From: Mobula hypostoma
Lineage: Eukaryota
Reading direction: 5' to 3'
Assembly (NCBI RefSeq): GCF_963921235.1
Contig: NC_086097.1
Span: forward strand, 96,722,001-96,786,000
Length of the DNA stretch: 64,000 bases
In this document: in pieces, positions 57,118 to 64,000 of the stretch
Layout: each line of letters starts with the position of its first letter
How positions within the stretch are numbered: the stretch's first letter is position 1
Position numbers and translations under genes: made by a program
Notes under the pieces: generated by a model
What the model was told of the DNA's origin: nothing
Database searches by the model: none
The model's input: only the letters and a program-made list of their open reading frames with translations

Positions 57118-57750
57118 GTAACTGATGATATGAAAGTAGCATAATCCAGAAAACTAGTGAATTATCTCTTGTTTATAATAAATATCATTAAAGTGCAGAT
57201 ATTAGAAATCTCAAATAAAAACAGAATTTGCTGGAAACATTCAGCTGGTCATGCAGCATTTGTCTGGGTGTTTTCTACCTGTAACGGTAACTCTTCCTCT
57301 TTTCATATATGTTGTATTACTACAGAATGTTTCCTGCGTATTCTGTTTTAACAGAGACATGAGAGACTGAAGATGCTGGAATCTGGAGTAAACCAAACAA
57401 GTCGCTCAAGGAACCCAGCGGGTTGGGCAACATCTTTGGAGGAAAGGGATGATCAGCTTTCTCAGTCGAGACCTTGCATCAGCATTGAGGGTGTGAACGG
57501 GGAGAATCAGAATCAAGTTTATTATCACTGACTTGCTTGTCGTGAAAGTTGTTTTCCAGCAACGGTTTAGTGCTATATGAAGAGGCGCATGGGGAGGAGT
57601 GGGGCAGATGGAGCAGAGTGAGGAGGAAGTGATGGGCAGATGGAGAAGGGAGGGGTGGAGTTAGCGACAGAGGCCGGGAGGTGATCGGTAGATATAAGAG
57701 ACCTGTAGATTGTGGAATCTGAACAGAAAGGAAGGTGATGAGTACAATTA

Positions 57751-59356
57751 CAAACCCCATTTCCAGAAAAGTTGGGATATTTTCCAAAATGCAATAAAAA
57801 CAAAAATCTGTAATATGTTAATTCACGTGAACCTTTATTTAACTGACAAAAGTACAAAGAAAAGATTTTCAATAGTTTTACTGACCAACTTAATTGTATT
57901 TTGTAAACATACACAAATTTAGGATTTGATGGCTGCAAAACACTCAACAAAATTTGGGACAGAGGCATGTTTACCATTGTGTTATATCACCTTTCCTTTT
58001 AATAACACTTCGTAATTCGCTTTGGAACTGAGGATACTAATTGTAGTAGATTTGCAATTGGAAATTTTGTCCATTCATGCTTGATAAAAGACTTCAGCTG
58101 CTCAACAGTCCGTGGTCTCCGTTGTCTGATTCACCTCTTCATGATGTGCCATACATTTCCAATAGGAGATAGATCTGGACTGGCAGCAGGCCAGTCGAGC
58201 ACACGCACTCTGTGTCTACAAAGCCACGCTGTTGTAGCCTGTGCAGAATGTGGTCTGGCATTGACCAGCTGAAATAAGCATGGACGTCCCGGGAAGAGAC
58301 GTCGCCTTGATGGCAACATATGTCTCTCTAAAATCCTAATATACACCTCAGAGTCAATGGTACCTTCACATACATGCAACTCACCCATGCCGTGGGCACT
58401 GATGCAGCCCTATACCATCACAGATGCTGGCTTTTGCACCTTTCGCTGATAACAATCTGGATGGTCATTTTTATCTTTGGCACGGAGAACTCGACGCCCG
58501 TTTTTTCCAAAAACTAGCTGAAATGTGGACTCATCTGACCACAGCACACGGTTCCACAGTCTTTCGGTCCATCTGAGATGAGCTCGGGCCCAGAGAACTC
58601 GCCGGCGATTCTGCATAGAGTTGATGGATGGCTTCCTCCTTGCGTAATACAGTTTCAAGTTGTATTTCTGGATGCAGTGACGGACTGTGTTGAGTGACAA
58701 TGGTTTTCCGAAGTACTCCCGATCCCAGGTGGCTATAATTGTCACAGTAGCATGACGGTTTCTTAGGCAGTGCCGCCTGAGAGCTCGAAGATCACGCGCA
58801 TTCAACAGTGGTTTCTGACCTTGCCCTTTACGCACTGAGATGTCTCTTTATTCTCTGAATCTTTTCACAATATTATGTACTGTAGATGTTGAAAGACCTA
58901 AATTCTCTGCAACCTTGCGTTGAGAATTGTTCCTTTTGAACTGACTAACAATTCTCTCACGAATTTTGGCACAAAGGGATGAGCCACGACCCATCCTTGC
59001 TTGCAAAGACTGAGCCTTTGATGGACGCTACTTTTACACCCAGTCATGATATCTCACCTGCTACCAATTAGCCTGCTTAATGTGGAGTCTTCCAAACCGG
59101 TGTTACTTGAATATTCTGTGCACTTCTCAATCTTATTTTAACTCTGTCCCAACTTTTGTTGAGTGTTTTGCAGCCATCAAATTCTATATTTGTGTGTGTT
59201 TACAAAATACAATTACGTTAGTCAGTAAAACTATTGAAAATCTTTTTTTTCATACTTTTGTCAGTTAAATAAAGGTTCACGTGAATTAACATATCACAGA
59301 TTTTTGCTTTTATTGCATTTTGGAAAGTATCCCAACTTTTCTGGAAATGGGGTTTG
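57751..59356 (-). mobile_element. Full-length Tc1 transposon (1606 bp) with a defective transposase
   Basis: ~210-bp TIRs starting caaaccccatttccagaaaagttgggat; TA on both sides; transposase 58994-57971 with in-frame stops, WSDES and SPDLSPIGN. Confidence 0.92.
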
Positions 59357-60549
59357 TAGATAAGGGAGGGATGGTTTTCAGATGGGAACAGTGGGAGTAG
59401 TGCATTGAGGACCCAGTGTTGTTTTAGGCAGAAGGAACCAGGTGGTGCAGGAGAAAGTTGCCCAGTTTTTTACCCCTCCTCTACCTGACTGCATCTGCCT
59501 ATCAATGCCTCCTTACCTGGTTCCACCTATCATTGCCCCCACCTACTTCACCTCTTTATTCCAGTTATCTATGTCTTTACACTCTCAGTCTCAATGCAAA
59601 GTCTTAACCTGAGTTATCAACCACCCCCTTTCCTACACAGGTGCTGCCTCACTTGCTGAGTTCCTCCAGCTTCCTCAATTTCTTCTCGTTATTTTTATTC
59701 ATAATGTCACAAAAGCAGAGCTTATGGTGTTACATAGGAAGAACAATTGAAATAATGTAAATATTTTATATTACCATTTTTTACAAGGCAGCTATGTAAC
59801 ATAGAACAACTGACTACAACATAATTGGGGTCACTTGCATAGGATTTCTGCTATTAGTAGTTTATTTCTCACTGTTAATAAATAAATAAATAAATGGAGA
59901 AAAATGTTTTTTATATAGCAACTTATTGTCTGAAGGTGTTTCATGGAGTACTACCAAGCAAAATTTGATGGCAAGCCTCTAGGGTATTAAAATGGGTTTG
60001 TGTAAAAGTGGGGTCCAGAGGAAGGAAAGTCGGGAGTGAAGGACTTCAGCAGCTGAAGGCAAGACCACCAGAAGAGGAACGATCAAAATGGAAGCTGTGG
60101 AAGAAATTACAATGGATGATATCTTGATGGATTATTAGGTTGGAAGGGACGACGCTATGGAGTAATTTGAATGCGAAAATTAGAATTTTAAAAAGCATTG
60201 TTTAACCATTGCAAATGTAGGTCATTGAGGGCTGTATGAATGAAATGATGTCTATTAAGACTCAAAGTAGACTTGGATAATGTTTATGGAGAATGGGCGA
60301 TGTGATGTTGGTTAATCAAAATTAAAGTTTACTAAAGCTTGGTGAACAATTTGAAGTGACGATGAGCTGGGCAGAAAAGGGGACAACAAGTGGATTACTA
60401 TAATGACATTTATAATCTTTGAACCAATAACTGAATCAAATATTGAATCAAAAATATGGTACTACCCCACCACCACCCTAGATATGGCCCAGACAGTTCA
60501 TAATCTCTACTATGACCACACATTTTTCATTTGTGTGTTAAATATCCAT

Positions 60550-60773
60550 TGTTGTGTATGTGGCCTGGTTACACAACAATGCTATTAATAAAAACACAGG
60601 AGATGGGAGCTAAGTTTCATGATTCTTTACTGGCAGAATCCAACTTGCCACACACACGTACAGATCAATACGTGCCTAATAGTGCATGCTCAATACGTGC
60701 CTAATAGCGCATGCAGCAACGGGTCCCTACAACATAAAGTAGTCCCTTATAATACTATAAGCCATACGGTACA
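60550..60773 (-). repeat. 3' LTR, with polypurine tract at 60774-60786
   Basis: Direct repeat of 63763-63962 with an extra ~25-bp tandem duplication; adjacent purine run on the minus strand. Confidence 0.9.
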
Positions 60774-61152
60774 CTCCTCCCCTTTTATTTTAATAGTATA
60801 TCAACTTTTTTTTAACTGGGTCACTATGCTAAACAAATATGTCTACCCTTAACATACAAATGCCTACCATTTGTTTTACTTAGTAACTTAATATCAAATC
60901 ATAACAAAGTAACATAATGTCAAATTATAACAAAGTAACATGATAATATCAAATTATAATGAGCTTTTTTGATTTTTGGTCTAAGACCCATTTCTAACTC
61001 AAGTCTGGGGGGGGGGTCTTCTCTGCCTCTCCGGGTAACGTCTGTCAATAAACTTGTTTGTTTTAATACAGATTTCCATATAAAAGTCATGAAAAGTTGA
61101 CCCCTGAGCATAGGGAGTTAAAAATTTGTGCGCCTCCAACTTGCTAAGAGTT

Positions 61153-62074
61153 CTAGGCAGCAGATCGCCTCCGTATAATGAAGACTGCTCTGTGCAGCTG
61201 TCCTAGATATATACACATCTTTGTGCTATCACTTGTCTTCCTTACCCATATCTCATTTGTTCCCCAACTGAGCTAATTACATAGCCAATCTTTGTATTCT
61301 CCTTGAATTCCAAATAGATAGCCTAACCTTTATGATACCATCTCTTATCGTAATATAACTTTCCATCTTCTATTCGTGCTTCATATCTTTGGGCTGGTGA
61401 TTCAGCAGGAGTGCTGGGAAGGTGCTCAGGAGAAGACGGAGATGCTGGTCTTTTCGGAGATTTAAGCTTATTAAGGGTTCGCAGATCTTCCATTATCTGT
61501 TTATCTGTTAACAAGTAATTTAACTGCGCAGGTACAGATTTTCGTCTTTTGTCGGTAATTGGAACAGGGTCATAAGGTCTCCTCCTTAGTTTCCTACCTC
61601 CATAGAACCTCCTGTGAATTCCATTGTTAGCCTCTCGTTCTCAATCACCTTTTTCTTTTCTTCTAACTCAATCTTTTTATCTTCAGATTCCTGCACTGTT
61701 GCTTTCTTCTCTTTAATGTAATTCTTTTCCACTTGTTCTGTCTCCAGTTGCAGAAAGAGCTCTGCATTTCATATTCTTTCCTTGTATTGTTGATCTAGTT
61801 TCTTTATCCTTTTCTGATACTCCTGCAAAGTGCCTTCCTGTAACTGCTGTAGCTGTCTTTTGAGAGATGTCAATTTCTCCTGGTACATCTGTTCTTTTAC
61901 TTCCAGGTAGTCTTCATCATCCTGCTTATTGGCAATATCTGTCTCCCTTGCATCCTCTGTATCTTTATCCGAGTCACGGCCACGGATACTGTGTTCGTCC
62001 TCATCGTCGACGCTGTCTAGCTCCTCTTCGTCGTTGTAATAGTCGACAATGGGTGAGAGGAGAGCTGCGGACAT
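61153..62074 (-). pseudogene. SUDS3: Processed (intronless) SUDS3 retrocopy spanning start to stop, disabled
   Basis: [74 protein letters not shown]; stops at 61769 and 61323, two frameshifts, two short deletions. Confidence 0.95.
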
Positions 62075-63378
62075 CTTCCCTGCCAAGCTGCCCTCCTTTG
62101 TTGACACATCTAGTGCCTTGATGGTCTTCCAATCCAACTGGACTTTCCTGAGCCATTCACGTCCCAGCAATGGTGGTACTCCATTGTTCAGTACATAGAG
62201 GTTCAGCTGCTGTGTTTTGTCTCCGTAGGTCACTGTCACTTTAATTTTGCCTTTGGGACGCACTTTCCATCCTGTGTAAGTCTTTAGCAGTAGTTTAGTT
62301 TGTTTCAGAGGTATGTGAGAAAACAGTCATTTGTAATCATGTACAGAGATCACTGTTAAAGCTGAGCCTGTGTCCAACTCCGTTTTCAGTCTCACGCCCG
62401 CCACTTGTGGAGTTATCCATATTACTCTTTGATCATCTGTCTCTTTCATGCTGTGAAGTTGCAGACAAGACAATTCACTTTCGTCTGAGTCGTTTTCATC
62501 AGAACTGCTTTCTTTCATTTTGTGTACATTGTTGTGTTTTCCTTTCTGGGGTTTCTTGTTTCTCTGTATTTTGTCCTTTTTCTGCTGTTTACTAGCTTTG
62601 CATACTCTGCCAGTGTGGCCCTGTTTGCCACAGTTTCTGCATTCTTTGTCTTTAAACCAACAATCATCAGGGTTATGTGGTATGGTCCCACAATGGTAAC
62701 ATTGTTTACTAGCTTTGCATACTCTGCCAATGTGGCCCTGCTTGTCACAGTTTCTGCGTTCTCTGTCTTTAAACCATGTGACATGTTCCCACAGCAGTAA
62801 CATTTCTTTCCTTCATTTCTGCTCAGTGACATTTTATTCGTAGCATATTCCAGAGATTTTTGTTGTATCTGTGAGGCACCCCATGCTGCTGTTTCCGTTG
62901 ATATTACAATGTTCAGCACCTTCTCGAATGTAAGGTCTTTTTCACCCAGGAGCTTCTTCTGTGTGGTTTCACAGTGCGTGCCACACACTAACCTGTCCCT
63001 CAATGCATCCGATAGACCAGCTCCAAATTGACAATGTTCGGATAATTTGTGCAATTCAGCACAATATTAAGAAATACTTTCATTTTTGCTCTGATTCCGA
63101 TTGTGAAATATAAATTTTACAGCAATGATCAGTGGTTTGGGGTTTAAATGCTGTTGGAGAGTGTCTACTATTTGCTTGAACGTTTTGTCAGCTGGCTTTT
63201 CAGGGGTTAACAAGCTCCGTAGCAGGCCGTATGTTTTTGCTCCCATAACACTGAGTAAGTCACTGGCTTTCTTTTCATCATTACCATCATTAGCATCACA
63301 ATGTAACTCCACTCTCTCACTGTAAGTTGCCCAGTCTTCAATGCCACTATCAAATGCTGTAATGGTTCTAATCATCAC
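62075..63378 (-). pseudogene. Gypsy gag and aspartic protease remnant
   Basis: EDWATYSERV..LRSLLTPEKP; LRDRLVCG; CCHC knuckles; ELDTGSALTVIS; LLGREWL. Confidence 0.9.
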
Positions 63379-63762
63379 AATCTTTGTTATGTTAATTTAG
63401 CCCCGTTTTCCCCTTGTTTTCTTTTTGACTCGCCTATCCTTTTTGCTAGAACCATGAGTGCACTCCATCTAGATCTGTGTGTCGCTTCTTTTTATCTTGC
63501 TTTTGGGGCAGGCAGACCCTCAGCCCTGGGGGTCAGCGCCGGCTGTGGTCTTGCCTGGACGTGCTGCAGCTCTATCTGTGTCTCTTGGTCTCCCGACATT
63601 CCCGACCCTGGCTGTGCTCCCACTTCCTTTTAGATTCGCAGCCTCGCTCTGCCTCCTTCTCTCGCTCCTTGGCTTATTCCTTGCTCTCTTTCTGCGAGTG
63701 CTGTTATCAACTAATAGACGGCGTTCCGATAAGATGTAGGTTCATTAACCTCGTCACCAATG

Positions 63763-63962
63763 TGTTGTGTATGTGGCCAGGTTACACAGTAATGCTGTTA
63801 GTGAAAACACCGGAGGTGGGAGCTAAGTTTCATGGTTCTTTACTGGCTGAATCCGAACTCAGCACACACATGTACAGATCAATACACGCCTAATAGTGCA
63901 TGCAACGACGTGTCCCTACAACATAAAGTAGTCCCTTATTACACTGTAGGCCATACGGTACA
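63763..63962 (-). repeat. 5' LTR, with primer binding site at 63749-63759
   Basis: 200 bp TG..CA; PBS TGGTGACGAGG is one mismatch from the complement of the tRNA-Ser(GCT) 3' end (recalled). Confidence 0.9.
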
Positions 63963-64000
63963 TCCATAATTGCCATTTTTAAAGGTGTCATATTTGCTTA

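Follow-up and report, generated by a model that had tools for sequence, protein, structure and literature searches.

A pol-less Ty3/Gypsy retrotransposon family of rays that carries host SUDS3 mRNA joined in frame to Gag-protease

Results

Structure of the element

The window analysed here, by which we mean the whole stretch of 64,000 nucleotides of Mobula hypostoma DNA, contains on its minus strand, from 63962 down to 60550, a complete 3,413-nt (3.4-kb) Ty3/Gypsy LTR element in a decayed copy. The region for RT, RNase H and integrase is absent from this copy, and spliced mRNA of the host gene SUDS3 lies in its place. The same 5-mer stands at both ends of the element, a 5-bp target-site duplication at 63963-63967 (upstream) and 60545-60549 (downstream), and all internal features described below are on the minus strand. 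Both LTRs begin with TG and end with CA; the 5' LTR (63763-63962) is 200 nt long and matches the 3' LTR (60550-60773; 224 nt, with a 25-nt internal duplication) at 176 of 199 aligned bases, a K2P distance of 0.128. The primer-binding site (63749-63759) is complementary to the 3' end of the host tRNA-Ser(GCT), with one mismatch in the window copy, and a polypurine tract occupies 60774-60791. Judged from its sequence, the window element is a decayed non-autonomous member of a Ty3/Gypsy family.

The capsid-like part of gag (62815-63375), a weak DUF7083 match that aligns with pol-bearing relatives, lies in a different frame from the knuckles and protease in this copy; a stop of its own interrupts it at 63069, and there is a frameshift near 62790. 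The nucleocapsid part (62586-62812; Pfam zf-CCHC) includes a 117-nt tandem duplication, with two CCHC knuckles at 62701-62660 and 62641-62600, and is followed by an aspartic protease with the start of the protease-RT linker (62094-62440, the upper bound being approximate), whose D-T-G motif is at 62374-62366. Within the linker comes the putative template-switch point, a 7-nt microhomology, GGGCAGC (62087-62093). Downstream come 12 nt of the SUDS3 5' UTR, read as four codons (62075-62086), the spliced SUDS3 coding sequence (61153-62074; Pfam Sds3) with all 12 host exons, its ATG at 62074 and its natural stop at 61153, and the first 113 nt of the SUDS3 3' UTR (61040-61152). There is no poly(A); a 5-nt microsimilarity marks the switch back to the element, whose 3' tail (60792-61039) is common to pol-bearing relatives. 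The coding sequence carries a family-wide 24-nt deletion near 61670, a private 16-nt deletion near 61596 and a 2-nt insertion near 61265.

Elsewhere in the window, at 57749-59358, is a 1.6-kb element with terminal inverted repeats of ~220 nt that are 94-95% complementary, presumably a DNA transposon of the Tc1/mariner type.

The host gene and its capture

Host SUDS3 is present at a single locus, on contig C78, and its 12 exons are all contiguous in the element. The comparison of host and copy was made by local alignment. The host protein is nearly invariant, since it is identical over all 319 aligned residues to an annotated SDS3 of a devil ray and over all 303 to one of a sawfish. Host intron 7 (C78 ~8395737-8398853, L038) has AT...AC ends and the donor ATATCCTT of a minor (U12-type) intron, and it was correctly spliced out of the SUDS3 copy in the element.

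The 7 nt at the switch are common to the pol-bearing donor family and to the host SUDS3 5' UTR, exactly at the join and 12 nt before the ATG, and ~2.7 kb of pol were replaced by the SUDS3 mRNA. The capture bears the signature of LTR-mediated retroposition, an already known mechanism. An L1-type processed pseudogene inserted in an intact element was considered and rejected, given the replacement of pol, the lack of a poly(A) and the microsimilarity at both joins.

The join between protease and SUDS3

An earlier note on this DNA had placed the zinc knuckles, the protease and the SUDS3 N-terminus in one frame, broken only by stops at 62327 and 61769, with the fusion near the point where RT would start. 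Our analysis bears this out. From 62812 downward one minus-strand frame runs through the knuckles and the D-T-G protease into SUDS3, and between 62803 and 61769 its sole stops are those at 62329-62327 and 61771-61769. The join sits in the protease-RT linker, ~105 codons ahead of the Pfam RVT_1 match in a pol-bearing relative. It is in frame in 98 of the 105 copies where it could be measured; these amount to one event, because the copies descend from one capture.

The stop at 61769, which replaces a conserved Arg, was read in the same note as consistent with CGA>TGA decay. Both stops are at CpG hot-spots and occur in only some copies, 42 of 102 for the protease stop and 39 of 103 for that in SUDS3; they turn up in all five structural types described below, with no linkage to lineage or to neighbouring variants. 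Their frequency, however, is about double that of the median CpG change, and 16 of 22 pol-bearing copies also have the protease stop, so that some of them may have been inherited. Because the join is in frame family-wide and the stops are unlinked CpG hot-spots in some copies, the masters that were copied most likely encoded a single Gag-PR-SUDS3 frame, as had been proposed for the founder.

We found no annotated Gag-PR-SUDS3 fusion protein; the single match in the protein search was a pol-type relative, which makes this a weak negative. Contigs from three of four runs (X9, X10, X18; unstranded, their RNA status guessed) bridge the protease-SUDS3 join. As copies lie everywhere and DNA may be present, these contigs indicate that the family exists in other rays, not that it is transcribed.

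Copy number, age and pol-bearing relatives

Exact matches to the 25-mer that directly precedes the join number 124 in the genome, so the family has at least 124 copies; among 70 of these matches that were examined, 67 led into SUDS3 and 3 into pol. Among copies picked independently, the exact 25-mer is present in 19 of 30 and in 8 of 27, from which we estimate the family at ~200-400 copies. The set analysed comprised 22 pol-bearing copies along with 113 that bear SUDS3. Between the two LTRs of one element the K2P distance is 0.05-0.15, with a median of 0.113 (20 elements, 19 of them SUDS3-bearing), and a perfect 5-bp target duplication is kept in 12 of 20 two-LTR copies. None of the 76 copies with near-complete gag-protease has an unbroken frame, the median being 8 breaks. 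RefSeq SDS3-like models from Mobula and Hypanus that span the site (proteins P0005-P0011) show the 8-residue gap of the family and are, by this feature, likely element copies annotated as genes; because the models of two devil rays and a stingray carry the gap, the family is present in more than one ray genus.

The genome also contains a large pol-bearing family, with 3,330 candidates of which 150 were scored. Its members are 90-93% identical to the SUDS3-bearing copies over the protease and encode PR-RT-RNase H-IN in one frame, with Ty3-G Gag-Pol as the best PDB match; they have no env, only 174 nt separating the end of the ORF from the LTR. The order of the domains, the LTR, the primer site and the 5-bp duplication are those of Ty3/Gypsy, while the ray relatives differ in their single Gag-Pol frame, two CCHC knuckles, 200-nt LTRs and tRNA-Ser primer. 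We take these last features to suggest the Mag group of Ty3/Gypsy.

Sub-lineages and further captures

The SUDS3-bearing copies form five types, with eight of the 113 outside them. Types I and II (21 and 29 copies), the latter including the window copy, keep the whole SUDS3 coding sequence. In types III and IV (19 and 9 copies) an antisense fragment of RNF213 follows SUDS3 codon 226-233 and the frame ends 10-28 codons later. This piece comprises ~930-950 nt of coding sequence from the RING region, with a 10-nt overlap at SUDS3 nt 668-677 (L109:3300-4250, L105, L089), and was trimmed in later lineages. Altogether, 55 of 113 copies (types III-V) have their frame cut short by the antisense RNF213; in the two copies measured, ~1.2-1.6 kb remain from the stop to the 3' LTR.

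Type V (27 copies, a count enriched by targeted search, against 5 of 64 in the unbiased sample) switches at SUDS3 codon ~121-126, via a microhomology of ~15 nt, in frame into the 5' UTR of host YBX1, which is read to codon 218 and cut there. Four related type V copies (L142, L146, L155, L164) have lost the protease and most of SUDS3 through two deletions, both in frame to YBX1, and in this protease-less lineage Gag is fused almost directly to YBX1. A separate intron-less YBX1 copy (L139, G000:C1:203889570-203892770) has no gag, SUDS3 or LTR match nearby; it may be a family member stripped of the rest, or simply a processed pseudogene of the usual sort.

Selection on the captured protein

Rare differences between host SUDS3 and the copies are neutral, with omega-like values of 0.94-1.18 across classes and stops near the expected rate. 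The near-fixed differences comprise 3 nonsynonymous (N) and 12-13 synonymous (S) changes and the 24-nt deletion, and no stop; codon 14 (46 of 90, CpG) was not counted among them. A ratio of 3 N : 12 S looks like purifying selection, but the synonymous changes may belong to the host branch or to the element branch. The near-fixed synonymous differences amount to 0.061 per site against 0.058 gained per copy, and the 3' UTR gives 0.032 against 0.032. As the host gene has also changed since the capture, in the same ratio as the 3' UTR, the founder branch must be short and is inseparable from the host branch.

Of the changes inherited within the family, SUDS3 has 5 N : 0 S and YBX1 has 6 N : 2 S, linked "variants" at SUDS3 nt 362, 374, 380, 690, 693 and 694 having been excluded as junction artefacts. 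In gag-protease the inherited changes are 34 N : 37 S, compared with 690 : 166 for singletons (p 5e-9), and the combined cargo (11 N : 2 S) differs from gag-protease (p 0.017). Few substitutions in the cargo were inherited, so that statistical power is low both for these counts and for the absence of inherited stops (p 0.055 for 5:0 by itself). Much of the signal in gag-protease is imported, since 50 of 67 linked sites also vary among the 22 pol-bearing copies, indicating repeated co-packaging and recombination with helpers.

Amplified lineages have also dispensed with parts of the protein. The 8-codon gap, found in all 80 copies that span it, falls within the solved dimer coil of SUDS3 (residues 80-163), and type V retains only half of that coil. 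Types I-IV (78 of 113) still have the Sin3-binding segment (host residues 195-219); type V (27 of 113) has lost it. The Tudor domain is lost in types III-V, with 28 of 113 copies in Tudor-less lineages besides the 27 that lack the Sin3-binding segment. No SUDS3 domain is common to all amplified lineages, and in itself the SUDS3 protein was likely of no use to the element.

Maintenance of the reading frame

Six inherited events lie downstream of Gag and all six keep the frame: the SUDS3 join, the YBX1 join, the 24-nt deletion (80 of 80 spanning copies), a deletion of 57 nt, whose 13 carriers are related (p 0.0025), and both deletions seen in the four-copy lineage without protease (carriers related, p 0.001). 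As controls, private indels of at least 9 nt were in frame in 38 of 101 cases, and 7-mers common to pol and SUDS3 mRNA in 125 of 309. The earlier note had put the chance of an in-frame join at one in three; the measured null rate is 0.38-0.40, as switches and deletions led by microhomology are in frame ~40% of the time. The chance of six in six is then ~0.002-0.004, a post hoc figure for events picked after the data were seen. Among the SUDS3-bearing copies analysed, no shared frameshift or stop had related carriers at p<0.01. Two kinds of change stand outside the six: the 117-nt duplication of the knuckles, whose 4 carriers are unrelated (p 0.93), and insertions of 15 and 45 nt in gag.

A second pol-less Gypsy family (L191-L209, for example G000:C55:59155812-59159135) has a coiled-coil fragment of RABEP1 after its protease. 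The reading runs in frame from the protease or linker into RABEP1 at 16 of 19 loci, with two join positions; the family counts 88 scored of 264 candidates, and it is not an unbiased pick. This family is unrelated to the SUDS3 family, at 21-41% amino-acid identity and with no DNA match.

Discussion

We consider it on balance probable that the masters of this family were favoured for an open frame through their cargo and not for the SUDS3 protein, which would make the cargo a passenger. A template switch inside a particle likely joined SUDS3 mRNA to the element, replacing RT-RNase H-integrase in frame. The chimeric RNA would have been co-packaged with the RNA of a pol-bearing helper, borrowing its RT and integrase, and would have kept recombining with that helper, the cargo serving as translated filler in place of pol. 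Continued translation would most likely have kept the RNA stable and in the packaged pool. Why the frame should be preferred is the least certain step. RNA stability is not a strict rule, because the RNF213 types were amplified despite their post-stop tail, which is about the length that an out-of-frame SUDS3 join would have left. In Ty1, genomic RNA is drawn from the translating pool and may need some translation for stability (PMC3945221). The same work describes Ty1 proteins as lacking cis-preference, which counts against a frame-favoured reading.

The cargo could also have been a pure passenger that is in frame by chance. Only the LTRs, the primer site, the packaging signal and perhaps Gag would then have mattered, and the intact frames would reflect luck and hindsight. 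The free loss of cargo domains, the amplification of copies with antisense RNF213, the neutral pattern of change after insertion and a null rate above one third all fit such a history. Against it are the six in-frame events out of six, the failure to find an inherited frameshift and the recurrence of the same design in the unrelated RABEP1 family, and we regard this explanation as unlikely.

A more ambitious proposal is that ray Gypsy elements repeatedly gave up pol for host proteins which they made as Gag fusions and put to use, first SUDS3, as a decoy or dimerising stand-in, and then the RNA chaperone YBX1. If true, a vertebrate retrotransposon would be evolving accessory genes by serial in-frame capture of chromatin and RNA-binding factors. 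We think it rather unlikely, and each of its two versions for SUDS3 improbable. Retroviral proteases generally need downstream dimerisation. In the first version a coiled-coil cargo, set directly behind a protease that is active only as a dimer, would replace the dimerising role of RT-integrase and could aid protease dimerisation or entry of the polyprotein into particles, and YBX1 could add RNA binding to Gag. Two unrelated families do place a coiled-coil protein (SUDS3, RABEP1) in frame behind the protease, and the protease-less lineage keeps its Gag-YBX1 fusion; the Sds3 coil is described as an antiparallel dimer (PMC8800102), and YB-1 is reported as a cofactor of HIV and MMTV particles. 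Yet the coil has the 8-residue gap and is halved in type V, and YBX1 is cut short and its shared differences are mostly nonsynonymous.

The second version, a form of which was put forward in the earlier note, is that near-complete SUDS3 released by the protease from the founder polyprotein disturbed Sin3/HDAC silencing, the truncated lineages riding in trans. In its favour, the capture took in the complete SUDS3 coding sequence, in frame and starting 12 nt ahead of the ATG, and joined it to the linker at which RT would be cleaved away; moreover, the Sin3-binding segment persists in types I-IV, and the near-fixed differences are mostly synonymous and include no stop. It fares poorly against the rest of the evidence: the synonymous count is what the host branch alone would give, the dimer coil has its gap in every spanning copy, domains and protease were lost in amplified lineages, the inherited SUDS3 changes are all nonsynonymous, none of the near-complete copies is unbroken, and we found no paper linking SUDS3 to such elements.

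Among known systems, the family most resembles the LTR-mediated retrocopies, or pseudo-LTR retrotransposons, of animals (Tan et al. 2016, PMC5131818). There too a spliced mRNA replaces part of the internal ORF with no poly(A), microsimilarity is seen at both joins (median 6 bp, against 7 and 5 nt here), and several parent genes may enter one element with further rounds of retroposition; human FAM8A1 in HERV-K and maize Bs1 are cited as examples. Those cases have one or few copies, in contrast to the hundreds of copies and five structural sub-lineages of the ray family, which also shows serial captures in one Gag frame, exchange of gag-protease with a helper and presence in more than one ray genus.

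Plant TR-GAG elements (PMC8704663) likewise have two LTRs, keep the Gag frame, lack RT and integrase and are mobilised by an autonomous relative. The ray family works like them, an autonomous partner being present, but it is not classed there: it belongs to vertebrate Gypsy, mostly keeps its protease, and its frame runs on from Gag and protease into captured host coding sequence. The crocodilian ERVs that captured KIT-ligand and nectin3 (Chong et al. 2014, PMC4299795) are likewise ancient LTR elements of vertebrates that multiplied while carrying a complete host mRNA, and they too share an in-frame deletion. They are retroviruses, however, and their cargo forms an ORF of its own where env would be and is reported to be under purifying selection, whereas in the ray family the cargo continues the Gag-protease frame in place of pol and gives no clear sign of such selection.

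We found no literature account of a SUDS3-bearing Gypsy family, and preprint supplements may list these loci. In a 2026 preprint (10.64898/2026.06.26.734816), MIPOL1, SUDS3, SDF2L1, SLU7 and ZNF276 head the list of genes that gave rise to retrocopies in cartilaginous fishes, and the abundance of retrocopies is attributed to non-LTR elements together with selective filtering. For the SUDS3 entry, one capture amplified as an LTR family offers an alternative cause of the pattern as presented there, and the other listed parents (MIPOL1, SDF2L1, SLU7, ZNF276) may be LTR captures too. A Pfam Slu7 search of the genome as a probe for SLU7 capture matched only five host exons.

Among gene captures by LTR retrotransposons in vertebrates the family described here is a large one, with copies numerous enough for the history of its masters to be read. 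Should the frame rule hold, selection on LTR elements without pol would act on their translation through foreign cargo, and the rule would then be a testable constraint on the origin of fusion genes and transduced genes.
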